From Raillietiella orientalis (lineage: Eukaryota), in assembly GCA_036172245.1 (NCBI GenBank), contig JAYWIR010000018.1:2418001-2482000 (forward strand): a stretch of 64,000 nucleotides of DNA, given 5' to 3'. The translations under genes and the position numbers were made by a program. Of the stretch, positions 27,592-53,196 are shown piece by piece. The number at the start of each line of letters is the position of its first letter. The stretch's first letter is position 1. The notes beneath the pieces were generated by a model, which was not told where the DNA came from, searched no databases, and was given only the letters and a program-made list of their open reading frames with translations.

Positions 27592-28613
27592 TTATGCCGA
27601 CTTGTCTTCTGAAGGAGCTGCTTTATCTGATGATAGATCCTTGACTGTTTGCTCAGAATTCTGTTGAAGACCAGTAAATTGAGCAGCTTTCAAAATTCGC
27701 AATTCTTCTTTCTGTTTCTTTCTCTGTATTTTTTTTTGTTCTTCCTCTTTCTCCTTAACTCTTGCTTGGAATTTTGGATCATAGACACTTACACTTTGAG
27801 AAAACTCTTCACGGACCTCCTCAATTAATCTGTTCCTTTCCCTCTGCAATTCAGAAAATACCGGATATCAGTTTGATAATTAATCTTATAAGTGAACAAT
27901 CAATTTGTTGTTTACTTGCACAACTTCTCAGTGCAAATTGCTTACACAATAACAGCTACATAATTAGCATTTCATGACACTTTAGTTTAAAATGCCTGGG
28001 GAAACTTTTAAGATTTACGTAAAACAAACCTGCTTAGCCAGAATTTTCGCAAATTTCTCTTCTCTTCTAGCAAGTAAGTCCCGTTTCATCCGTTCCAAAT
28101 TCATAAGTTTCTTCTTTATTTCCTTTTCTCTTTAAATGTAATTCAAAAACGTTACAAGAGAATTATTCTATTCACTTAATTTTACCTTTCCCACATGCTA
28201 GCTATTTCTTCTTGTCTTTTTTTCTTTGCTTTGGCAACTGTTTCCAAGAAGGGCTCTTGAAATTCGAACTGTTCGTATTCTTTCATTACTTCCAACTGCT
28301 CTTCAGTAGGCCAAATAATTCCAGGATGAACTCCAGAATTCTCACCAAATCTGGCATATAATTTCCTAAAGTAGGTTACTTTTTCTTGATATGCATACTT
28401 TGCTCCACCTTTTGGAGGCTGATTTCTAATTAAATGAAATTCTCTATTTCTTAAACGAGAGACATTCTGTATATTAAAGTTCTCTTCACTTTCATTTGTT
28501 GAAGAATCTATTGGATTGTGGGTTGTACAAGTTCTTTTTGTTGATACATCTATGCACTTGTGTGAGACCAAGGATCCTAACCTTTTATAACAAACCGACC
28601 ACTTCATCAACAT
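27592..28613 (-). CDS. GADD45GIP1: GADD45G-interacting protein 1 / mitoribosomal protein mL64 (CRIF1), 3 exons
   Basis: YFRKLYARFGENSGVHPGIIWPT and LIEEVREEF...DPKFQ followed by a K/E-rich tail. Exons about 28613-28186, 28130-28030, 27845-27592 (boundaries approximate). Confidence 0.85.
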
Positions 28614-31600: not shown

Positions 31601-32134
31601 TTTATGACATATATTCTGGAGTATTTACGAAACCCGTACTTTGTCATAATCTACATAAAACTGACTTTTCTCAGATGGGTTCAAAATCTGTTAGCATATA
31701 ATAATTGAACAAAGCCATCTTGACGTTCAACCTAATCTTGCCCTTGAATTAGGCATACCAACCCTAAAAGATCAACTTTAGAAAACCTCACGAATATCAG
31801 TTCTAAGAAAAGTGGAAATGTGTGCAGAGAAAATTCATGGGTTTATCATCATTCTCTATTTATGAACACGTCGTTGAAGGCAGTTACCTAAACTATTTGT
31901 TTCACTATTTTAAAGATCTGGGATACGGACTCAGTGGCAACGAAATCAAAGAACATTATTAGCAAATAATCTCTTACTCAATGCTCGAAACTCATTTCTG
32001 AAACATAAATAACCAAGCAATTTTAAAAACACCCGGAAATTCATTTTTGTTACCTACTTAATATTCATTAATGAAATTTACTTATACTGAAGTAGATGAA
32101 ATTTTGCTTTTTTCATTTATATTCAAAAATAACC

Positions 32135-32181
32135 GATATTGTGAATGATAAAGGAAAAGTTCTTGGAAAAATACGTGGAAT
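32135..32181 (+). pseudogene. 47-nt copy of IBA57 coding sequence
   Basis: gatattgtgaatgataaaggaaaagttcttggaaaaatacgtggaat matches 34267-34313 with one mismatch. Confidence 0.9.
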
Positions 32182-33489
32182 TTTCGACTTGTGTGGATTT
32201 GTTGTTAATGCCTTGAATGTTTACCAGTCTACTTAGTATATAAATTGCTAATGTAGTGAATACAGTTACATTGCTTTAAAATACATTGTCAATGTGGAAA
32301 TTCGCATTACAGAATGTATTAAATTATATAGATTTTCATTATGTGGAAATTCGCAAGACTATTTCATCAGCATGATGAATGACACAGTCTTATAATTTCT
32401 TTTCTAAGATAAAATGAGCCTGTGTTATAAACTGAAACAACACATTCCCATAACAGGCCCACGTTTGGGAAACTCCAAATATATAATTTGATGGATGACT
32501 TGGAATTTTGTTTCCAATGACATAAATCGACCGTCCACTAAACAGAACTGGGAGTGGGCAATGATCTTCAAGTAGCCAACCGTTTACTTGATGTCACAGA
32601 GAAATCATTTAGAGTAAACAAACACAGCTATTGTTAAAAAAAAAAAAAAAGAGTCTATGTAAGAAAATCTGAGAAAAACTTTTGCTATGGAGACATAACA
32701 TAAGCTTTTTTCAGATCCTTCAGAAAAGGGGATCTTTGTCATACAATTATCTTCAATTTTTGATGGATAAAGATAGAGTACAAAAGAACTCTTTTGTTGA
32801 GCAATACTTGATCTAGGAAAGTCTCTTATCTTTCTAAATAGATAATAAGAGGAAAAAGAAAAAGGATTTGGAAGAAACAAGAAAACAAGTGATGTAGATG
32901 AGGCTAAGATTTAAGAAAAATTAAAATGTGCATTTAATATTTTACCAATGTGCAGTGGATTAGGTGGATGTACATAATAATTTGCATTTACAGTTTTTGT
33001 GTAAGAGGAAGAAAATTAACTGCAATGTAACTGTATCTTCATATTGCCAGCCCCAATTCCCTTGAATGTGCTTTGTTCTCAATAGTTCCACGCTTTAGTT
33101 TATAGAGTTGTCGGTTAAAAAGAAAAAAAAAAAAATATTTGTGTTAAAATTTCTCATTTAGTACGCATAAGTGTAAACCAAATTGGATTGTAGTAAAGCA
33201 TTAGCAGAAAAAATGAGAACCTTCTCTTATAAACTATGAAAAATTATACTGCGATGTTTTCGAAGGCATTTTAGTTACTGTGACATATATCGTCGTATTT
33301 TTTAATATCAGTTTTTGTAAATCGTACTGAAACATTAGTGCAAAATGTAATCTGTATTTTAGTATTTTTTGGTTTCGGAATGGAGCTTGGCATTTGGTCA
33401 AAGGAAAAATCGATACACGTGAAAGAGAGAGAGAGAAAAAAAACAAGTGTAAATTTATTTATAAGGGTTTTTAAGCCTAAAATAATACC

Positions 33490-34431
33490 ATGATTTGGTC
33501 AAAATGTTCGTACATGGCCATGCAAGCCACCAGAAATACTTCACTATACCTAAAATGCTTTTACTCTGTGAAATGTTATGCCTGTGACACTTCATTTTTG
33601 GCTGTGAACGGTGCAGAAGCAAAAGTATTCTTGCAAGGAATATTAGCCAACGATGTGTACAAACTGAATAGACAGAGTGCGTTATACTCGGTTATCCTAA
33701 ATAATAATGGACGTATTATGTATGATGTGATTTGTTATCAACCAAATGAAAATTCTGTTGTTATTGAATGTGACAGTAGTGCAGTCGAAGATCTGAAAAA
33801 ATATCTGAATTTTTTTAAGTTGAGAAGAAAAATAGATATACAGAAAGATGTACGAAAATGTGTGGTGTGCTATTCTGATATTATCGGGGAAAAAATTAGT
33901 ATAGAAAAGTTGCAAACCGAATATTTTTCTAACATTTCATATTTTAGAGATCCCAGGTCAGAATTATTAGGATACAGGTTTATTTCTGATAAGTTTGATG
34001 GTACTGTGAATACTCTTTTTACTGCTAATAACATTGAGTATAGAAAATTTAGATATTTATTAGGTATAGCTGAAGGAACAGCTGAAATTCCTCCTGGAAA
34101 ATGCTTTCCTTTAGAATATAACTGTGATTTTTTAAATGGTGTTAGTTTTGACAAAGGGTGTTATATTGGTCAAGAGCTAACAGCCCGTGTCCATCACACT
34201 GGTGTTATCAGAAAGAGAATTGTTCCCTTTAAATTAAAGGAGATTACTAATGTGATGTTTGACTCTGATATTGTGAATGATAAAGGAAAAGTTCTGGGAA
34301 AAATACGTGGAATAACAGAATGTTATGGGATTGCTCTTGTTAGAATTACAGACATGGCATCTGAAAATGTGCTTACGCTTAAAAATGGTACACCATTAGA
34401 AATCTTTTTCCCAGTTTGGTGGCCACATTAA
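33490..34431 (+). CDS. IBA57: IBA57/CAF17/YgfZ-family mitochondrial Fe-S assembly factor, intronless
   Basis: 313-aa ORF with FLQGILANDV and the family signature GVSFDKGCYIGQELTARVHHTGVIRKR. Ends PVWWP. Confidence 0.95.
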   Translation: MIWSKCSYMAMQATRNTSLYLKCFYSVKCYACDTSFLAVNGAEAKVFLQGILANDVYKLNRQSALYSVILNNNGRIMYDVICYQPNENSVVIECDSSAVEDLKKYLNFFKLRRKIDIQKDVRKCVVCYSDIIGEKISIEKLQTEYFSNISYFRDPRSELLGYRFISDKFDGTVNTLFTANNIEYRKFRYLLGIAEGTAEIPPGKCFPLEYNCDFLNGVSFDKGCYIGQELTARVHHTGVIRKRIVPFKLKEITNVMFDSDIVNDKGKVLGKIRGITECYGIALVRITDMASENVLTLKNGTPLEIFFPVWWPH

Positions 34432-34447
34432 AGTTTGTCTTGCAAAT

Positions 34448-34792
34448 ATGAGTACTGCAGTTGAAGAATATGTAGCTACGTTTAAATGCTCTTGTTGTGA
34501 ATTATCGGAAAAATATCATTATAAAGGAAAAAATCCCCCATTTGTTAAAGGAATTTCATTTGTTACAGACTGCTATCTTATGAAGGATCCTTTTGCTCCA
34601 CATCCCCAAGGACTTTTTCTGTTATTGGGTTCTGACTGTTCAGTTTGTCATAAACCAGTTTGTCAAAATGTCAAATGCAGTTTGTTTTATGAGAAGTGGT
34701 TTTGTAAGTGGTGCTTCAGAAATTTGGCAGAAAAATTTCCTTTAGCAGTGAAGAATAAAGCCAAAAGTCTATTAAGTGATAATGATAATTGA
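34448..34792 (+). CDS. CDPF1: Cysteine-rich DPF motif domain-containing protein 1, intronless
   Basis: 114-aa ORF: FKCSCC...KNPPF...CYLMKDPF...LLLGSDCSVCHKPVC...CSLFYEKWFCKWC, the C6_DPF pattern. Confidence 0.92.
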   Translation: MSTAVEEYVATFKCSCCELSEKYHYKGKNPPFVKGISFVTDCYLMKDPFAPHPQGLFLLLGSDCSVCHKPVCQNVKCSLFYEKWFCKWCFRNLAEKFPLAVKNKAKSLLSDNDN

Positions 34793-34935
34793 AACTTATT
34801 GTTAGTTTATTTGAGTTAGTTTATCAAATACAAACTTTGTTTTTGATGTCCATGTAATAATAATTTTCGAAATTCTTTTTCAGTTTAATAATACAAAGAA
34901 ATTTTGACTTGCTTTTGCTTGCAAACATTTGAAAT

Positions 34936-36679
34936 ATGGCATCAGTAGTCAACAACCCATCAGTGTAAGTATATCCAAGTACATATGTAAAAATCAGTTT
35001 CAATAATTGCAAGCCTGCTTCTGGTCATAGTGCTCAGCCTGTGTGAAATGATTGAGAATATTTGATGAATATGTGTTTAATGTGCTCAGTATCAGGAAAT
35101 TTATTTTAAACTTTGCTGGTTTCTGATTCTTGAAAGCTAAGGGTACTGTAATCAGTGCTGATTTTCCTATTCTGCAAGAAGCATGCTATTTATATTTCCG
35201 TTTATAATACATTTTCCATCTTGATTAATTGAAATTCATGACTGCTGATTAATGTTGGATGTTAATCGGATTGAATAATTTGCATTTACAGTTGTGGTAG
35301 AATCGTAAAAAAATTCTTTTTATGAAAACATGCTCTGAAGTAAAAAAATGATGGCATATCATTCAATTTTCCCTTGTAAAAACGTAGACTTTAGATTGTG
35401 TTTGTGATTCTAGAGATCGACAAATGAAAGTGATTCAGAAACAATTGGAAGTAACAGAAAAAGTATTGGAATCTTTATGTTTGGCATTTGCAGCATACAC
35501 CCGCAAATGTTCTGGGTAATTTGTTTTCCATTATCCACAACTTTGCACTGCACCCTAGGATTTGTGATTAATTTTCTTTGTAAGTAGCTTTTCACAATGA
35601 CATGGTAGTGTTGCTTTGTAGTGTTCGGGATGCTGGGGATGAGCTAGTGATCGCATTGAAGAATTATGCAGATACTAATCACATGGCTCATACATCACAG
35701 ACAGCTATTCTTAAATTTGCTGATACATGGGCAGCCATTCAGGATCACTGGTGAGCTAATCCTCTAGAATCTATTGCTATTTGTGGGATTAGGGATGCCC
35801 AGGTACATGACTTAGAGCAGCAGGTAGTTACTGAACTGACAGTGTATGATCAGTATTTCAAGAAGATTAAAGAGAGTATCAAAGCAGTTGTATCAGCAGA
35901 GAAAAAAGAAAAGCGTAGTAAAGATCAGATGGAACGAACACAGAATAAAGGACCTTTGTTTAGTCATCACTTGGTAAGTTAAATACCTGTCATCTGTTGC
36001 CTTCAGGTGCTGACTGATTGTGCCTTAGGTGCTGGCTGAGGATGCCTTGGAAAGAAGAAGAGGAGACGTTTCCTTGGCTTCACGCATTCTAGAAAATGAG
36101 GTGTGTTTACGTTTCATTTTTACACATAGTGAGATTTTCTTTAGATGGATCAGTTTGAGTGGAGAAAGCTGTGTGATATAAAGCGGATTCTTAGAGATTT
36201 TGTTTGTATCCATATGTCAACATGTGCTCGTGGCTTGGAACTGGGTTCTCAGGCCTATCATTGTCTACAGCAGATAAATGAGATACAAGATCTGCAGGTA
36301 GGTACTTTTGCTATGGATAAAATTTCAACACGTGATTGTTTAGAATTTCCGAACTTCCATGAGGTTACCATTTACTCTCTGTCGTCTGGAGACAGTGAGC
36401 AGCATTAACAGTCATTCATGCCCATCAACACCATTGGGGGCAGCCAAATCTATTAGTTTGCCCACATCACCTTCACAACAAAATAAACAGACCATTTCAG
36501 ATGTGAGTTTGTAGACAATACACAATATGTTGTTGTAGTTGAATATTGCCAGAAAACGACTATCCTTTGGAACTTCTGATGCTTTTAAGGATACTTACTC
36601 CATGATAGACCTTGAAGATGTACTTAAGAGCAAAGATAATTCAGATTTGAAATGTCAGTCAAATGGAATTAAAGAATAA
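34936..36679 (+). CDS. FAM92: FAM92/CIBAR BAR-domain ciliary protein, multi-exon
   Basis: Exon 1 at 34936-34964 (MASVVNNPSV, phase 2, then gtaagt) joins 35413: DRQMKVIQKQLEVTEKVLESLCLAFAAYTRK..VRDAGDELV..FADTWAAIQDH..DAQVHDLEQQVV..FEWRKLCDIKRILRDF..INEIQDL. Last exon ends NGIKE with stop at 36679. Confidence 0.85.
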
Positions 36680-36725
36680 TAGTTGTGTCTTTGTAATATT
36701 TTTCTTATGATGTGTTCAAACTGAG

Positions 36726-36992
36726 TTAGTATTTTGATTGTACCAAATACAAAACAAGCCACAGGGCTGTGGTAACCCCCATCGGATTGAAAATTATAAC
36801 AGGGAGCAGAGAGGAGGGCTGTGTGTTCTTCAGCAACTTAGGTGCACATTGGATTGCTGCAGGAGTACCAACATAAACAAACTTCCTTATGAAAAATAAC
36901 ACATGCTTGTGGATTTTTATTATGTACAATGCTTTCTCAAAGGACTGGTTCTGGTTACCATATGTGTAAACAACCTTATTAGCAGGATAATG
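36726..36992 (-). CDS. Possible last two exons of an unidentified gene with a hydrophobic C-terminal tail
   Basis: Exons 36992-36928 and 36885-36726 are joined in phase by a 42-nt GT-AG intron, giving HYPANKVVYTYGNQNQSFEKALKFVYVG...TALWLVLYLVQSKY*. Upstream exons not resolved. Confidence 0.3.
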   Translation of the reverse strand, partial: HYPANKVVYTYGNQNQSFEKALYIIKIHKHVLFFIRKFVYVGTPAAIQCAPKLLKNTQPSSLLPVIIFNPMGVTTALWLVLYLVQSKY

Positions 36993-39009
36993 CTAAGGGA
37001 AAAACCTCTATTGCAAGACTGGAAATGTAAAGGCATCAGTGATCCATCCTGGACCCTTAATGTTGCACCTGAGAATGTTTCTAAGGTATTGCATGCATAG
37101 CACTCACGATACTTATCTAGTGTTCATTCCGTTCTGTACTCTTTTCATGTCTCTGGGTGTGTTTTGTTTTGTTCCTTCTGTCCATCATTCAGCTGGCATT
37201 TCATGAAATAATGGCTATTCCTACAAGTGAAGATAGCACCATAGAATTTGTGTTGGTTTGAGTGCAAATAATTGATCTCAGGGCCTACACAAGAATGCTA
37301 AATTGAAAAATTTCTGTAGCATTCAAGAAGTCAAAAGAGAACGAGTAATCACGGATAGTGATGTACCCAATAGTGTTTCAATTCATTGCGCAATAACCAT
37401 GATTTGTAACTATAATATTTGCCCCTTTCCACTTTCAAGTGTGCCTTCGTGTATTACTTTACCTTCGTTTATTAATTCGTCATTGACGCTCAAAAATCCA
37501 TTTTTAGGAAGTAGTCCCAGGTTAATGCAACATGAGGTTTTTTTTCAGTGTGCGTTCCACACAGCAACGAGCATCAGTCAGTCTTCCCACTCAGGTAACG
37601 TTGCCTCCGTAGTGGTCATGAAAACTCCCTTTTCACTCTTTCGTAGCACGAGCTACCTTTCAATGCAATACTTCAAAATTTATTTATTAATTTTTTTAAA
37701 AAGTATCTCGAAAAGGTTCGCAAACAAAGTCACTTGGTTTCTCTCGGTTTTAAGCTGTGATGCTGTTCGTGGTGCACCAGCGATCAATGCTGAGTACAAA
37801 GTCATCAGAATAACGAAGATATAAATGTAAACTGATTTAACCTCTATATTCTAAATTTTAATCCATTTATAGTATTTTTTTTTTACATCTACATTTACTT
37901 CTGATTTCTATACCCTGAACACAGTAATCCTATATTAATTCACATCGTATATAAGGAGCTATTCATATTTTTTCAAGGATGGTATTTATTCTTTCTGTAG
38001 CAATAGATTGAAAAACGTAAGCAAAGAATCTGAATGAATGAACACCACCAAAGAGTTGAATTGAAATGTTCTATTCCTCTAGATCAATTACATGCTTTTA
38101 CAACTTCGCAAGAGGGCAGCGTTGCCGCGCTCATTGCTTCCTTTTTGCCTCTTAGATTATTCTAGCTTTGCTCTATCGTGAAGAGTAGAAGTCTGACCTT
38201 TGTTTGAGTGCATTCGTAGCTTCTTCTGCACTAGCAGATTACGGAATCCCACTCAAGGAACTGAAATGCTGCTAAGTAATTCTTCAAGAGAAAACAAATA
38301 CACGACAGTGTACTGTTCCGAAAAGTGAGAGCAAATAAAGTGGTCACACGTTGACAAATGCGGAATCCTTGTAACTGAAAGCACAGTGACGATTTTACAA
38401 AATATGACAAAGGGGTGGTGTTCATACTTGATGAAGCCATATTACTTCTAATTGTCAATGGACCATATGCGAAACGTTTAAAAGTCCTTGAAAGAAAGAG
38501 AAAATTTCACAGATACTTCAAACTTCCAGTTTCTATCGACAAATGTGTCAGAGGTCACTTCAATTTTTCTGGAGGCAGGGATGCCATGTCGTAGAAGATT
38601 TGTTTATTTTCTCAGAACAGCTTCTTGAGGATTCGATTTTTAAACTGTTCACCCATCGTAGTTTTCTTTTCAAAATGGAACCGAGACAATTTAACATTGG
38701 AAACTTGAAAATTTTATAATTACATGCTTATGAAAAGAACACAGGCAATATTTTTTGATCATTCATCCTGATTTCATCTCCGGCTTGTAAACAAGAGATT
38801 GCAGGCCAGAGATTTTATGGATCATTTGATTTAACTATAGATTTCCTTTTCCCTACATGGCCTTAGACCACGATAATGATAAGAGCAAAGATAAGTATAC
38901 AGAAAGGCAAGACGGTGAAAACAAAGATAACGAACCCACGAGTGATAAAATCTAACTCTTTGTATTGGTATTCGGATTTCAGTACTGTAAGTATTTGTCT
39001 GGTACTGTG

Positions 39010-40300: not shown

Positions 40301-41421
40301 AGAAGGATCGATGCCAGAGAAATCGGTGCGTCATGGGTTTCGAGTTCCCCCCGCAAGATGATGCTGGTTGGCCCGTATTTGGGGGTGACACTGGTTAACA
40401 CCTGGTCACGCATGAAAGTTTATGTATAAAATAAACTTTTATGTCGGTGGAAGGACCTTCGATCCTGCCACGTTACTTATGGATACGAAAAGGAACCTGT
40501 CGGGATCTGGCAAGCAGGCCAGTGCCTCGGCAGCACAGAGGAAGGGGAGACAAACAAAAAGAAAAGAAAAAAATCCAAAAAGGAGAGGGGTTCGGGAAGT
40601 GATCACTGTGTGCTAGAGGGCGTCCTCTGCATCTGCTGGCAAGTCCCTGTTTTATGGTTCCCAATCTTGACGCTGTCCTCATGAAGAGGACAGCAAAATA
40701 GATGGCGTCCCTGTAGTTCTGGCCTCTGGCGTTGCTCCATGCGGCCACGATCCCGAGTAGGCAGCACAGTGGTGCTAGGATGCCGCACTGGTGGAAGACT
40801 GATATTCCCGGATGCCCCCGTTGACTGGCCGGGAATTGAAACTTGACCCATTTTCAGGAATCAAGAGTCCTTCGTGGTTCCCATCCGGTTGTGAAAATGG
40901 CGCTGCACCGTGAAGTAGCATCGAGTACCATGGAGCTTGTTGACGGATACCTCTCCAGAGTATCAAGTAGCGCGCTGCTCCCTTCGACCTTCAAGAGAAA
41001 GGGGTAGCGTCCATTCGGGGTTCTCCTCAGGGGAGGAAACAAGGAGCGGATCCTTTCCGGGTTCCCTTTGGAGAAGACATGAGGAGTGGCTCCCACAAAC
41101 TGGGTGGTCCCTCCGGAGAGAATGAGGAAGAGCATTTCCTTTCCTTTCGGGATTCCTTTGGGAGACAACCAGAGCGGAGGTTTCCTCCAGGTTCCCTTTC
41201 AAGAGGAACAGCTCCTTCCTCCGGAGCCTTCCTGGATTCATAGAGTGTCCTTGAAGGGTTGCCTCCTAACTTGAGGAGTGACACGCACCCTCGGGTAGCG
41301 TGGACAGCGTCAAAGAGTTTCGTGAGTCCCCCTTAAGGAGGCCGACAGTTCTTCGGCTCTTAGCAAACCAAAAAAATGAAAACCCGAAAAAAAAAAAAAA
41401 GGCTCGAAGGAAACAGCGAAA
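40301..41421 (-). mobile_element. Internally deleted L1/Tx1-like LINE 3' remnant
   Basis: Minus-strand RDAIYFAVLFMRTASR...MQRTPSSTQ* and the 3' UTR align with the zf-RVT-bearing copy at 46880-48250. Confidence 0.6.
40884..41421 (+). repeat. About 535-bp near-identical direct duplicate of 52662-53196
   Basis: ORF-track peptides 41027..41284 and 52805..53062 are identical, as are 41086..41274 and 52864..53052 (offset 11778). Confidence 0.97.
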
Positions 41422-44479: not shown

Positions 44480-45660
44480 TTCAGGCGATGGTCGGACTTG
44501 GTCGGAATAGCGCGGCTGCGGGAGAGGTGGCGAGAGTCCAGCCGTGCTTCCTCAAGTCTTGTACGGAGTCATCTAAGGTGAGCATCCCGAGATGTCTTGG
44601 TGATCCAGCGCACCATGGACCGATCTCTGTGACCTTCTCCCAAGTATCCATTCTCTTCTCACTGTACAGTAGAGTTTGCAGGGAGGAAGGGGATCCCAAT
44701 GATATTGTTACTCCATCAAGATGGCTGTCTGCCGAAGGGCGTAACCTGTGTTGTGCCAGACCTTGGTGGCAGCGAGGACGCTACTCCTTCGCAGCCAGCT
44801 ACCCACCTCGAGAGCACAGCAGGAGGGAGACGTCGGCTTGCTCTGTTCTAATCGCCAGGTCTGTCTTCTAGATCGGAGCTGGAGCTTGTCATGCTCCAGT
44901 GTAGGAAATCCAGTTCCTGTATCCCGACACGTAGCCTCCAATTCCTTCGGCAAGAAAGTCAACTTCTGTGCCTCTGTGGGGTTTTCCTCAGAAGGTTCTT
45001 GGCCTGCTTTTTAGAGCAGTGGATTCTCTCCATCTTCGAATTTTTCACTCCTTCCCTCATCCCGAGTGAAGAAGGGGAAGGGGCCGAAACTGTTCACTCC
45101 CTCAAACATGACGGTCATCATCCGCAGAAGAAACAAATAGGCGGACAGTTCAAGTACGATGCTCCCATTTCCTGGAAAGGGTTCCGATCCGCTTCCACGA
45201 GACATCTCCTCCCAATTCAAATACCGGAACACTTACATCATCTGGAAGATGTCCAAGGAGTTCAATCATTGCTGTAGCGGATATTCGAAGCCATCTTCAC
45301 GTGTCGCATCTTCTCCTCACGCCGCCGGTGGACGTGCGGGTGGACGTGGAGTCTCCAAGGACAGCGTCATTTTTCGGATCCCATGCACCAGGCGGTCCGA
45401 CACTAAAAGACGTCCCACCTCTCGCTAGTTGTCTCAGCAGGGTCATCATCCTTCCCCTTCTTGTTTTTAGGCCGAGCAAACAAAGGTCAAGAGGCGGAAG
45501 AAGGGAGCCGCACGAATGTACTGCACATCGAGGTCGCCTTAAGGTGTCATGAGTAGGCGTTGCTGGTCTTGCATTGGGGCGTCCCATGCAAAACTTGCCT
45601 TTACTGCTGGATCTGGGAGAGACTGTGCCAGATGAGGCGAAAGGGAGATCCTCCTGCACC
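44480..45660 (-). mobile_element. Decayed LINE ORF2 fragment (post-RT region)
   Basis: Minus-strand LPKELEATCRDTGTGFPTL and LGMLTLDDSVQDLRK resemble the post-RT region and the family LDxxKxPRR motif. Heavily disrupted. Confidence 0.35.
45197..45378 (+). repeat. 182-bp exact direct duplicate of 46516-46697
   Basis: acgagacatctcc...gtcatttttcgga is identical in both positions and the flanks are unrelated. Confidence 0.97.
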
Positions 45661-46230: not shown

Positions 46231-46419
46231 AGCGAATCTGGAAGAAAAGCATCTAGGTCACTTCCGTCATAAGGAACTTGCCGACTGGAAACAGGTCAAG
46301 AGCCGACTCTGCTCTCCGGAGGTGGCCAGACCAGACTTCTGACATGAGAGACAAGGTAATCGAAATACCTTCTTGTGGTTATCTTCAGGAGAATCCAGTA
46401 CTTCTGTCTGGCCCACATC

Positions 46420-46800
46420 ACACTAATTGGCATAGCCGAAGTCTTTGTCCGAGCTACTCACGCTGCTCGCTTCCCGACGGATCCGTTCGAAGGAGTGGGG
46501 ACTCTTCGTGCTGGAACGAGACATCTCCTCCCAATTCAAATACCGGAACACTTACATCATCTGGAAGATGTCCAAGGAGTTCAATCATTGCTGTAGCGGA
46601 TATTCGAAGCCATCTTCACGTGTCGCATCTTCTCCTCACGCCGCCGGTGGACGTGCGGGTGGACGTGGAGTCTCCAAGGACAGCGTCATTTTTCGGAGGA
46701 GGTCGTCGGCCCAGACCGACGCGCCAGCGCCGAGGGGAACAAACTCGGTACGTCTTCCAGAATTTCTCCGTGGGCCTCCGGCACCAACTGAAGAATTGGG
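46420..46800 (+). mobile_element. Degenerate APE-endonuclease-like start of a LINE ORF2
   Basis: Frameshifted TNWHSRSL / LFVL-ET-HL / GRAGGRGV / VFQNF occur in the order of the APE motifs (WNxRxL, LQETH, GV, NxYAP). Inference from motif order. Confidence 0.4.
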
Positions 46801-46810
46801 GTACCCGTGT

Positions 46811-46875
46811 TGGCGGCGTGTGTCTGCGACCTCCGCGGATGGCAGCAAACGTCGTGGGTACGAGTCCCACCGGGG
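46811..46875 (+). mobile_element. tRNA-derived SINE-like head, copy 2
   Basis: tggcggcgtgtg...ggtacgagtcccaccgg is colinear with 40236-40300, and homology continues downstream (tttcgagttccccc, cactggtt.acacc.ggtcac). Confidence 0.55.
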
Positions 46876-46879
46876 GAAG

Positions 46880-48250
46880 GATCGGCGCCGAGAACAGGAG
46901 GTTCGTCGCAAGTTTCGAGTTCCCCCACAATATGACGCCAGTTGGCCTGTAGGCTTCAAAAGCGGCACTGGTTGACACCCGGTCACATCGGGGAGTTATT
47001 TATAAAATGAACATACACATCTGTGGCAGAACGTTTGTTCCTGCCAAGTTGTGAATACGGGAAGGAACCTGCTGGGAACTGGCATGCAGATCAGCGGAAG
47101 GGGTTAGCCTCTGAAGCACAGGGGAAGGGAAGATAAACAAAAAGATAAAAAATAGAACCAAAAACATACAGTCAAAAAAGTGGGGGGTTCGGGAAGGGAT
47201 CACTGTGTGCTGGAGGGCGTTCTCTGCATCGTTGTAGGCATGCCGGCAAGTTCCTGTTTCAAGACTTTCAGATGGGGCCATCTTGACTCTGTCCTCATAA
47301 AGAGGATAGCAAAATAAATGGCGTCCCTGTCGTTCTGGTGTTGCTCCATGCAGCCACGGTCCCGCTGCTAGGGATGCGGCCGGCATGAGGGCGTCGCGCA
47401 GGAAGAGGAGCTTCAGAACGTCTCTAGGGTTGCCGCCGCGGGTTCCAAGGGTCACGGCAAAGCGTTCCCAAAGGAGTCGGAGGGCAACACGGTCCACTAG
47501 GAGGTGCGGAAGAGATTCTTGCTCTCGCACCTTGCACAGTTCGGGTCCACCTCTTTTTCCCGTATCCAGTAATGCCGGCGTCGTTGCATGGGAAGTCCCA
47601 GTGCAGCAGCATCAACGCCGACTCTTGCCACTTCAAGGGAAGGGTGCGGGTGTTCCTGTGCATTGCAGGTCTTCTTCGCCTGGAATACCTAGTACCACGT
47701 CCCAGCGCAAAAGTCCATGAGGTCGAACACTCGGGGTTGCAGCCTCAGTGGGCTGGCCCATCGTCCACTCGCCCAGTCCTTTCCTCCTTCCGGAGATTTC
47801 CAGGTGCAGGAATGATGGAAGCCGGATACCCCCGTTGCGATCGGAAGTTGGCCCTCCGGGGGTTCTTCAAGGGATCAAGGAGCCGGCTCCCTTCTGGGTT
47901 CTCCGATTGTGCAGATGGAGCCATCCCTCCCCTTGAAGGAAGACCCTCCATTGCGTACTAGGGTTGAGACCTTCCTCGGGGGTTGTCTCTCCAGGGTGTA
48001 AGAAGCGCTCTGCTCTCTTCGGGTAGCGCCCTTCAGAAAAACTGGGAAGCGCCCCTTCGGGGTTCTCTTCAGAGGAGGTGGAAACAAGGAGCGGTTCCCT
48101 TCGGAGAAGAAATAAGGAGCGATTCCCTCCAGGGAGTCCCTCCCAGGGCGAGCATTCACTTCGGGGTTCCCACCTAAGGGTTAGAGAATGTAACAAAGCC
48201 ATCCCAGTGTCACGCACTGAAAGCGCACGGTCGTTCCGTCGGGAAACCGG
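46880..48250 (-). mobile_element. L1/Tx1-like LINE 3' remnant with zf-RVT-type zinc finger
   Basis: Minus strand TLPLKWQESALMLLHWDFP...VDPNCARC-(frameshift)-EQESLPHLLVDRVALRLLWERF, a degraded CxxC...ExxxHLxxxC..LW motif. Confidence 0.7.
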
Positions 48251-50330: not shown

Positions 50331-52661
50331 GGAGGGGACACGGGGAGAAGAAGGAGGCAAGGCGCCGAACACTCTCAGGACCTCGCGAGGTCTTGAGACG
50401 AGAGAAGGCCTTGGAGGGGTGAAAGACACGGGCGGTCCCTGCAAAATGCGTCGTGGAAATGCTTCTTCTTCGGAAGCATGGCTGACAGTGGCGCTTCCGA
50501 CGGCCGGATGTCCTCGTGAAGGTGGAACTTCGGGGGGAAGGAGGGGGGGAGAACGCGCGTCGCGGCGGACAGGTGAGCTGCATCCTCGCGAAGGAGGGTG
50601 TTCGGGGGCAGTGGTGTGTATCTGAACAGCGAATGGTTCTGCCGAGTCTTCAAGGGCCACTTCTTCATGGCGCCTTTTCCTCACTCACTCCGAAGGCGAG
50701 AGAAAAGGGCCCGCGTAATGCCCCAGGGAAGACTGTAGATGGACGGACATACTTCGTTGGCGTCTTTGCTGATGTCTCTCCTTGAGAGAGAGAAGAGTTA
50801 TGATATCAGCTATCAAACCAGTTAGAAAAAAAGAAAAAGATGCAAACATCGACAACGTTCACACTGACCAGAATGTGTGGCATGGGTGTCTGAAACACAG
50901 CAATGAAGAGAGGCATCGGAAGAAAGATCGTTCAACTCAGAGTTATGGGCATTAGGTCCATAGGGTCCATGCGGTGTTAATCACCATGAAGCAAATAGGC
51001 CCCATCTAGTGTGCTCTAGATTAATCGACAGCACTTCAGGTGCCATGTGGATGCTGATCATCTGAAAAACAAGGCGGAGCAAAAAACGTTGCTAAGCCTC
51101 TTTTAGAAGATGAGAAAACGGTTGAAGATCATCCCGAAGAAGTTCAACATCTTCAGAATCGGAAGCCAGCAAGACTTATCGTCTAGCCAACCCCGGATTC
51201 CAAGAGATTAGGCATGACGATTGCCATTTTTGCCCAAGCAGCTATAGGGAGGCGACAGGAGGAGATTTGTAAGATAGTAAAAATGGGAACAAGGAAGTTC
51301 TATTCGTCGGAATAATCTCTCATGTGACCTCACATGCACTGCTGTATTTCTTGGTGTGGCTTCGACGGAAAAAGAGTCTTTTCAGGTGGATCAAAAACAA
51401 GGGAAAGAAAGGTTCAATATAAAATGTTGATACATTCCTATGGATACCCAGGAGATGAAAATGAGCAGGCGCGATAACTCTAGAAGATGAACCGACCATA
51501 CGGAATCTTTAGAAGTCGTCGCTACTCGTGTCTAAATGGGATGCGCGGTCACATAAAACACACTGGAGGAGCTCTTAAATAAGCCTGTAGGACCAGTGCC
51601 AGATTCAATAGGGAATTGAGGGAGATGGGAGGACGTTTGGCTGCGACACTGAAAAAACGCGAGACATTCACTGCGTTTCCTTCCTCGAGACCCAGTCTCG
51701 AAGAAGGAAAGACCTCGGTGGATGCCCATAGGAGAACTCAACAGAAGCATCGCAGAAAGTCAGACACAGAAAAGGATCAAATGCAGGCATCTCTCCTCTT
51801 CGCCATTAGAGGAGTAGCCGCTCCATCGGTGGTAGAGTCTGTGAGTGTCGGAGACCGAGAGGAAAGAAAAGAACTCAAACAACTTTCCAGAACAAAGGAA
51901 AGGAGTACGAAGAAGGGAATGGGGCATGCCAACATCCAGCAAAGCCGAGGCATGCGCTGGAGGCACCATTCTGGGTCGCCCACCAGGTGAGCAGCCATCA
52001 GAGAGCTCCCGACCAGATGCCAGATGGTGAAATTTGTGGAAAATCCCTCCAAACATACACTACATGTATCAGAATGAATTTGAAGGCGTTCGGCGAACGC
52101 ATTTCTTTCTGTGCCTGGATGTTTTGTCCGCTGGGGCAGGCATCTTGTAGAGCACGGCGCGACAGACACCATTCGTGTGCTGAAGCACGCTTAGTTCTCC
52201 AAACGTGTGCACCTCTAGTGCTCTACCGATGGTTCCACGCAGGTTAGGAAGTAACACACTGGAAAAGGATCACCAGAGGATGACAGCCGTTGAAAACGCG
52301 TGGCACACTCCGGGAATCGGACTCCTCTCCGGGTGCGTAGGACGTTCGATTCGGATTGGCCTTTCGAGAAAGGAGGCGATCGAGCTGTGGGGATCTGTCG
52401 GCGGCACTGTCACATAACCGTTATGAGTTTGAAGTGCGGTCCAGCAATCAAAGTGCATCCATCCATTCTCATCAGAGTCGGCTGCTGCGTTAAGGGCTGA
52501 CCAGCAGGAAGACGGTGAGCACCGTCTATCAGCACCGGTGGTTGATCTGTAGGGCTCGGGTGCAGCATTGGTGAAAACCGGATTCCCCTGTTGACCGGCC
52601 TGAATCAGAAGTTGACCCTTCTGGGGTCCTTCCAGGAATCGAGAGTTCTTCGAGGTTCTCC

Positions 52662-53196
52662 TCCGGTTGTGAAAATGGCGCTGCACCGTGAAGTAGCATC
52701 GAGTACCATGGAGCTGGTTGACGGATACCTCTCCAGAGCATCAAGTAGAGCGCTGCTCCCTTCGACCTTCAAGAGAAAGAGGGAGCGTCCATTCGGGGTT
52801 CTCCTCAGGGGAGGAAACAAGGAGCGGATCCTTTCCGGGTTCCCTTTGGAGAAGACATGAGGAGTGGCTCCCACAAACTGGGTGGTCCCTCCGGAGAGAA
52901 TGAGGAAGAGCATTTCCTTTCCTTTCGGGATTCCTTTGGGAGACAACCAGAGCGGAGGTTTCCTCCAGGTTCCCTTTCAAGAGGAACAGCTCCTTCCTCC
53001 GGAGCCTTCCTGGATTCATAGAGTGTCCTTGAAGGGTTGCCTCCTAACTTGAGGAGTGACACGCACCCTCGGGTAGCGTGGACAGCGTCAAAGAGTTTCG
53101 TGAGTCCCCCTTAAGGAGGCCGACAGTCGTCGGCTCTTAGCAAACCAAAAAAATGAAACCCGAAAAAAAAAAGAAGGATCGAAGGAAACAGCGAAA
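52662..53196 (+). repeat. Second copy of the ~535-bp block at 40884-41421
   Basis: Near-identical sequence. More diverged similarity extends left to about 52550. Confidence 0.97.

Follow-up and report, generated by a model that had tools for sequence, protein, structure and literature searches.

A conserved IBA57-CDPF1 gene pair in Raillietiella orientalis, followed by FAM92, may be expressed as overlapping monocistronic mRNAs

A stretch of 64,000 nucleotides (nt) from Raillietiella orientalis (contig JAYWIR010000018.1, positions 2,418,001 to 2,482,000; hereafter the window) carries three closely spaced genes on the same strand, which encode the YgfZ-like iron-sulfur assembly factor IBA57/CAF17, the small cysteine-rich protein CDPF1 and a FAM92/CIBAR protein (Table 1). 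The initial annotation of this DNA had proposed that the three genes form a single transcription unit. Our analysis supports the coupling of IBA57 and CDPF1, which is conserved in insects, but not the inclusion of FAM92. The reading that we favour, with a probability of roughly 0.55, is that IBA57 and CDPF1 are a conserved, co-oriented and overlapping pair expressed as separate monocistronic mRNAs with short untranslated regions (UTRs), that the 5' end of the CDPF1 mRNA lies in the tail of the IBA57 coding sequence, and that FAM92 is a separate gene.

Open reading frames (ORFs) were called under the standard code and families were assigned by Pfam. The ORF listing bore out all coordinates of the initial annotation, including the gaps of 16 nt between the first two genes and of 143 nt between the CDPF1 stop codon and the FAM92 ATG. 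The IBA57 protein matched PF25455 (CAF17_C; E-value 4.9e-13, residues 240-312) and PF01571 (GCV_T; 3e-08, residues 37-107), both above the curated cut-offs, and about 30 residues stand ahead of the conserved domain. In a 32-sequence alignment that included the window protein, K222, G223, C224, Y225, G227, Q228 and E229 (KGCYxGQE) as well as W310 and W311 were invariant, and the window protein has every invariant column of this alignment. The CDPF1 protein matched PF10170 (C6_DPF) with an E-value of 1.6e-30 and 105.7 bits against a cut-off of 27, covering profile positions 1-92 of 94. Cysteines C14, C17, C64, C67, C72, C77, C86 and C89 were invariant in a 36-sequence alignment, P48 and F49 were nearly so, and the DPF motif reads KDPF in the window protein.

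The FAM92 gene model comprises 966 nt of coding sequence and seven GT-AG introns. Its exons 2, 3, 4 and 6 matched PF06730 in colinear order (profile positions 14-45, 49-88, 91-144 and 176-224, respectively). Against a cut-off of 23.6 bits, exons 2, 4 and 6 scored 23.7, 33.8 and 36.7 bits, whereas exon 3 remained below it with 17.7 bits; the exons were scanned one by one. All seven FAM92 acceptors are preceded by tracts that are G/T-rich and not strongly pyrimidine-rich (8-10 of 15 pyrimidines). The earlier observation that the first two genes are intronless in the midst of intron-dense genes was correct, as FAM92 has its seven introns and an actin-family neighbour is also split.

Table 1. Features of the IBA57-CDPF1-FAM92 locus, with positions counted from the first nucleotide of the window.
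Feature	Position	Strand	Description
TCAGTTT after T-rich run	33308..33314	+	180 nt before IBA57 ATG; candidate initiator or acceptor
Upstream ORF	33380..33493	+	37 codons; TGA overlaps IBA57 ATG (ATGA)
IBA57/CAF17 ORF	33490..34431	+	313 codons, single exon, complete; stop TAA at 34429-34431
tctttttcccag, pyrimidine tract and CAG in IBA57 tail	34403..34414	+	candidate CDPF1 3' acceptor or initiator
ATTAAA hexamer	34427..34432	+	overlaps IBA57 stop codon
Spacer AGTTTGTCTTGCAAAT	34432..34447	+	16 nt, from IBA57 stop to CDPF1 ATG
CDPF1 ORF	34448..34792	+	114 codons, single exon; all family-invariant residues kept
AATAAA hexamer	34754..34759	+	CDPF1 tail; ends 33 nt before end of stop codon
ttctttttcag and ttt	34873..34886	+	TCAGTTT from 34880, 54 nt before FAM92 ATG; candidate initiator or acceptor
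FAM92/CIBAR gene	34936..36679	+	8 exons, 321 codons
FAM92 exons 1-4	34936-34964, 35414-35515, 35622-35750, 35793-35973	+	
FAM92 exons 5-8	36029-36100, 36145-36297, 36344-36502, 36539-36679	+	
ATTAAA hexamer	36668..36673	+	ends 6 nt before end of FAM92 stop codon

We examined the relatives of the window proteins for the same gene arrangement. A HMMER scan with CDPF1 gave 373 representatives at E≤0.001, of which the best 150 were considered. Among 15 longer relatives scanned with Pfam, two (P0151 and P0189) had an IBA57 GCV_T domain ahead of the CDPF1 domain, one had REJ and PLAT domains, and 12 had the CDPF1 domain alone. P0151 and P0189 were also the only matches when 151 CDPF1 proteins (the best 150 of 373 and P0001) were compared by local BLAST with 120 listed IBA57 proteins. 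When the CDPF1 part of P0151 was used as query, eight proteins were found at E≤0.001 among 41 candidates (proteins of 213-681 residues); PF01571 and PF10170 were both present in seven of these eight, two of the seven having PF25455 too. These seven fusion proteins come from four ant genera in all (Trachymyrmex zeteki, Trachymyrmex septentrionalis, Acromyrmex insinuator, Pseudoatta argentina, Temnothorax longispinosus and Temnothorax nylanderi) and from the braconid wasp Microctonus aethiopoides. In two of them, the whole of IBA57, including the C-terminal barrel, is followed by CDPF1. Among the named rows, the IBA57 proteins of Orthoptera (Anabrus 55%, Gryllus 52%) came nearest to the IBA57 part of P0189. 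The predicted fusions show CDPF1 placed directly 3' of IBA57 on the same strand in those insects. Judged from these sequences, the pairing is conserved in insects and not due to chance.

In the IBA57 tree, the window protein is located on a long branch within a weakly supported group of unnamed ENA/Logan sequences, next to the insects, and the enclosing clade (95/91) contains all insect rows without Priapulus. The best identities of the window IBA57 to its relatives were 41-43%. No relatives of CDPF1 were found on prokaryote genome contigs (0 from 64 pattern matches) or on viral contigs (0 from 169). Since our literature search, which did not extend to bioRxiv supplements, found no paper naming IBA57 and CDPF1 as a pair, the breadth of the conservation is a small new point.

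For Drosophila, we take CG11755 to be the CDPF1 gene, an assumption that is weighed below. CG8043 is Iba57, according to an entry in PMC5817353, and File S2 of the FlyBase 'Rule-Benders' paper lists CG8043 and CG11755 at 85A5 as sharing a promoter and a 5' UTR (PMC4528330). The class in question holds 130 fly genes with a common promoter and 5' non-coding exons, and in this pair only a subset of the CG11755 isoforms use the shared promoter, as given by FlyBase in the same paper. CG8043 is absent from its File S1, the list of dicistronic genes. If the identity of CG11755 holds, the fly would thus be a direct precedent for a common promoter combined with a non-coding leader and alternative splicing, with an unshared promoter serving the other isoforms.

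The signals at the stop codons bear on where the mRNAs end. A canonical polyadenylation (poly(A)) hexamer starts no more than 40 nt from the end of the stop codon in all three ORFs. No such hexamer was found at 34760-35865, and hence none in the gap between CDPF1 and FAM92, or at 36674-37400. At the local rate of about one hexamer per 500 nt, the joint chance of this placement at three stop codons is about 4e-4, calculated post hoc. Because each ORF has a poly(A) hexamer at or near its stop, the pattern argues for three separate mRNA 3' ends, with predicted 3' UTRs that are very short, and it suggests that unusually short 3' UTRs may be a property of this organism. An mRNA 3' end usually lies 10-30 nt past the hexamer. 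The IBA57 mRNA would therefore probably end about 10-30 nt past the ATTAAA that overlaps its stop codon, which is at or just beyond the CDPF1 ATG, and if it does, the CDPF1 mRNA would have to begin inside the IBA57 tail. In this respect we agree with the initial annotation that 16 nt precludes two fully separate units: the CDPF1 mRNA has to begin either within the IBA57 ORF or ahead of it.

The same signals have to be reconciled with any mature transcript that contains both IBA57 and CDPF1, from which CDPF1 would be translated by termination-reinitiation or by internal entry over the 16-nt spacer. This we regard as quite unlikely. The spacer does fall within the stop-to-start range of -34 to 319 nt reported for fly loci with polycistronic transcripts only (PMC4528330), and both ORFs are intronless, as opposed to seven introns within the 966 nt of FAM92. 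By a rough estimate from the intron density of FAM92, the two ORFs together should have about nine introns, and the probability of finding none is about 9e-5. The ant IBA57 models vary by whole segments and at least 11 of the best 150 CDPF1 matches break at residues 72-76, which suggests that the orthologues of both genes have introns elsewhere; a joint loss via a processed transcript extending over both ORFs would explain this difference. However, the ATTAAA on the IBA57 stop codon predicts cleavage at about the CDPF1 ATG, reinitiation past an ORF of 313 codons is known to be inefficient, and there is neither a poly(A) remnant or A-run after CDPF1 nor a pair of flanking direct repeats that would mark a retrocopy. 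Moreover, the fly pair is filed under shared 5' UTR and not as dicistronic in the lists of PMC4528330. Reinitiation on one mature polycistronic mRNA, which had been put forward for the locus, is disfavoured by the presence of an own poly(A) hexamer at the stop of each ORF.

An evolutionary version of this idea appears unlikely as well. It holds that IBA57 and CDPF1 are an old co-transcription unit, kept from this non-insect-looking pancrustacean lineage to Hymenoptera, an orthopteroid insect and Diptera, that their introns were lost jointly via a retrocopied bicistronic transcript, and that the association gives a hint at a functional connection between CDPF1 and IBA57. If the joint retrocopy were true, the 16-nt spacer would be a genomic fossil of a bicistronic mRNA. 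If the coupling has been kept for so long, this would hint that CDPF1, a probable zinc-binding protein, works with, or is co-regulated with, the mitochondrial iron-sulfur (Fe-S)/lipoate branch of IBA57.

The 5' ends are less clearly marked. A T-rich run followed by YCAGTTT is found ahead of all three ATGs, that of IBA57 included, and occurs 12 times on the plus strand in 22 kb; the joint chance of the three placements is about 5e-5, for a motif that was defined post hoc. CCAGTTT begins at 34411, 35 nt before the CDPF1 ATG, and the CAG/CCAGTTT at 34411-34414 is the sole marked site in the IBA57 tail. As had been described, 34414 and 34883 are the last positions of the two pyrimidine-rich CAGs, no ATG intervenes before the next start, and the context AAATATG is found at both the CDPF1 and the FAM92 start. 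The arthropod initiator has the consensus TCAGTY. The motif is thus ambiguous, as it is as good a match to a 3' acceptor as to an arthropod initiator.

Taken as an initiator with A+1 at 33310, 34413 and 34882, YCAGTTT would give each gene its own start, the core promoter of CDPF1 would lie within the IBA57 coding tail, and the genes would have only overlapping DNA in common. Such independent packed promoters are possible but doubtful. The same heptamer stands ahead of IBA57, which as the first gene needs its own promoter, and the upstream sites are CAG at all three genes, whereas the cis acceptors of FAM92 are TAG in seven of seven cases. A/T-rich stretches are also found about 20-34 nt upstream of each site, but such stretches are ubiquitous at 31-34% GC, so that TATA-like elements carry no weight. 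In addition, the CCAGTT at 34411 differs from TCAGTY at the first base. The restriction of the shared fly promoter to some CG11755 isoforms fits separate promoters; on the other hand, the conserved close spacing in insects, like the fly annotation, suggests a promoter that is shared at least in part.

Under the favoured reading of separate, overlapping mRNAs, in which all transcript ends and splices are predictions from sequence features, the CDPF1 mRNA would start within the last 20 IBA57 codons, at about 34413-34415, at the CAG/CCAGTTT. Our first, though tentative, choice of route is that a transcript from the IBA57 promoter has its short non-coding leader spliced to the CAG at 34412-34414, thereby skipping the IBA57 ORF, as in the fly annotation. 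An internal initiator at CCAGTTT, though likewise tentative, is about equally likely, and both routes may be in use. The shared leader with alternative acceptors that had been suggested for this locus does match the shared promoter and 5' UTR listed for fly Iba57 (PMC4528330), but it has a rival of the same rank in the internal initiator.

FAM92 would be transcribed separately, as a gene of several exons that has a start of its own about 54 nt ahead of the ATG. Judged by its length, the 143-nt gap behind CDPF1 can hold a core promoter, and FAM92 need share nothing with the pair. No comparative link between CDPF1 and FAM92 was found among five CDPF1 relatives with a C-terminal extension, in none of which a FAM92 domain was detected (0/5), or in the closest CDPF1 relative with DNA, the locus L001, where the downstream gene is a different one.

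Another way of obtaining three mRNAs would be a spliced-leader (SL) operon, in which one pre-mRNA is cut by polyadenylation and the SL is trans-spliced to positions 34415 and 34884. T-rich CAG sites lie ahead of all three ATGs, and the junction between CDPF1 and FAM92 is operon-like, with a CAG 91 nt past the stop. SL trans-splicing occurs in copepods and amphipods (PMC7986045, PMC4664967), and the position of the window IBA57 beside the insects, in a clade without Priapulus, has also been counted in favour. In an SL operon the acceptor is located after the upstream 3'-end site. The layout between CDPF1 and FAM92 would fit this order, but at the junction of IBA57 and CDPF1 the model fails, the CAG being placed ahead of both the IBA57 stop codon and the poly(A) signal. 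Trans-splicing at 34414 would destroy the IBA57 mRNA of the same precursor. Furthermore, the 64-kb window contained no SL RNA family (0 Rfam matches at the gathering score), the homologous insect pair is handled by cis mechanisms, and to our knowledge insects do not use SLs. The SL trans-splicing considered in the initial annotation is therefore very unlikely.

Several observations weigh against the reading of overlapping monocistronic mRNAs or against individual supports of it. In the AT-rich part at 18-40 kb, an acceptor-like site (at least 10 of 15 pyrimidines followed by YAG) is met about every 180-200 nt whichever strand is read, and at this frequency such sites are not significant when considered alone. 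The contrast between CAG at the three upstream sites and TAG at the FAM92 acceptors slightly favours an initiator, or else acceptors of a special class, over ordinary cis acceptors at the candidate sites. A leader begun at 33310 would hold two upstream ATGs. The insect fusions are gene predictions, and as such they are evidence of adjacency and not of co-transcription. Our assumption that CG11755 is the fly CDPF1 is compatible with the hymenopteran gene order, and a literature search for a link between CG11755 and CDPF1, also under UPF0595, PF10170, FBgn0037611 and IPR018785, found none. Lastly, L001, a 3.7-kb metagenome contig (one locus from 314 pattern matches) whose CDPF1 has 57% identity to that of the window, has a gene for an RNase PH exosome subunit upstream of CDPF1 and not IBA57. 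The pairing of IBA57 and CDPF1 is therefore not universal: the proposed synteny was found in ants, a wasp and an orthopteran-like insect, but not in L001.

L001 is also of note for its own organization. Its positions 1-2574 contain four intronless ORFs on the same strand, which encode the RNase PH exosome subunit, CDPF1, a membrane-like protein of 93 residues and an RRM protein, with spacings of 21 nt (RNase PH to CDPF1), 128 nt and an 8-nt overlap. The packing on this eukaryotic contig is operon-like. CDPF1 thus has close neighbours there as well, though with other partners.

We know of no function that has been assigned to CDPF1. The predicted model of the window protein was confident, with a predicted local distance difference test score (pLDDT) of 90.3 and a predicted template modelling score (pTM) of 0.81. 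Foldseek found no match to the model in PDB at E≤0.001, the best VIA-align match was a RIM zinc finger at Z 4.0 (root-mean-square deviation 2.0 over 47 aligned residues) with none reaching Z 5, and a sequence profile search against PDB gave nothing below an E-value of 0.36. The model bears a weak resemblance to cross-brace zinc fingers, with no solved relative, and nothing in these model-based fold comparisons points to an Fe-S protein. The link between CDPF1 and Fe-S assembly that had been raised as a functional lead is speculative. A prediction of the IBA57-CDPF1 complex scored 0.00, for which controls were not run, and this speaks neither for nor against binding.

A faint hint at a connection of CDPF1 with cilia comes from three sources. 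P0203, a predicted protein of 1509 residues, joins REJ and PLAT domains (polycystin-1-like) to a C-terminal CDPF1 domain; a supplement row of PMC2375033 marks CG11755 once in a compilation of ciliary-gene studies; and FAM92 is the neighbour of CDPF1 in the window. The same paper describes CG11755 as 'novel', with the worm homologue D2089.3. A loose RFX X-box pattern derived from PMC2375033 had 123 matches in the window (1.9 per kb), none of which fell in 33706-35586, and the tighter, palindromic version had no match anywhere in the window. The scan is uninformative with respect to FAM92 and CDPF1.

The tight pairing of IBA57 and CDPF1 is not a quirk of one genome: ants, a wasp and an orthopteroid-like insect have it too, as does Drosophila according to annotation. 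A pairing kept for so long offers a handle on CDPF1: one can ask if enzymes that depend on Fe-S clusters or lipoate respond to its loss, or if the two genes are linked by regulatory architecture alone. It also holds a warning for annotation: in seven of the eight proteins at E≤0.001, the gene predictors had merged IBA57 and CDPF1 into false fusions.

The three genes are located in an AT-rich stretch (18-38 kb, GC 0.31-0.37) between GC-rich repeats. Nearby genes are a CR6_interact gene (GADD45GIP1-type; 28185-28613, minus strand), the split actin-family gene, a kinase gene and a kelch gene. The GC-rich flanks contain near-identical repeated segments (40854-41198 and 52605-52976; 45112-45552 and 46257-46952). 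The stop-to-stop ORFs in each of these pairs have long identical peptide stretches in common and are therefore interspersed repeats and not genes. Upstream of IBA57, the 37-codon ORF contains the 11-mer ATTTGGTCAAA, which is found again in codons 2-5 of IBA57 and gives the impression of a duplicated start region, and a one-codon ORF (ATGTAA) is present at 33345. A 47-nt copy of IBA57 coding positions 34267-34313 (97.9% identical, same strand) lies 2.1 kb upstream at 32135-32181; at the protein level, the fragment extends over 32132-32206 (25 residues, 68%, E 1.1e-4). It may be filler DNA or the leftover of a local rearrangement. Apart from this piece, the window contained no further fragments of IBA57 or CDPF1.

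Compared with known systems, the locus shares certain features with each of several arrangements. The SL operons of Ciona, Oikopleura and nematodes also have intercistronic regions that are very short or missing altogether, as well as T-rich AG acceptors just before the downstream ATGs; the median distance is 1 bp for Ciona, compared with about 31 bp for Oikopleura and about 100 bp for C. elegans (PMC7986045). In the window, however, the first candidate acceptor is inside the upstream coding sequence, before the stop and the poly(A) signal. The Drosophila dicistronic mRNAs, of which D. melanogaster has 159 pairs in FlyBase release 6.04 (PMC4528330), likewise combine two unrelated ORFs on the same strand with a stop-to-start distance in the reported range, but the window has a poly(A) hexamer over the first stop codon, and Iba57 is not in the dicistronic list of PMC4528330. 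The fused models of Hymenoptera (such as P0273 of A. insinuator and P0277 of M. aethiopoides) agree with the window in gene families, order and strand. The difference is that in these predictions the IBA57 stop codon is bypassed by splicing or read through, whereas a stop codon cleanly separates the two ORFs of the window; moreover, the ant IBA57 appears to have introns, as judged from its variable models, and the window IBA57 has none. In the fly Iba57/CG11755 pair, as in the window, the upstream gene is the IBA57 orthologue and its downstream neighbour is on the same strand; the window pair has no intron in either ORF and a spacer of only 16 nt. The locus does not reveal a new mode of gene expression. 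By analogy with the fly, it would not be a new polycistronic system but another case of the overlapping or promoter-sharing pairs of genes, a class already flagged in Drosophila.

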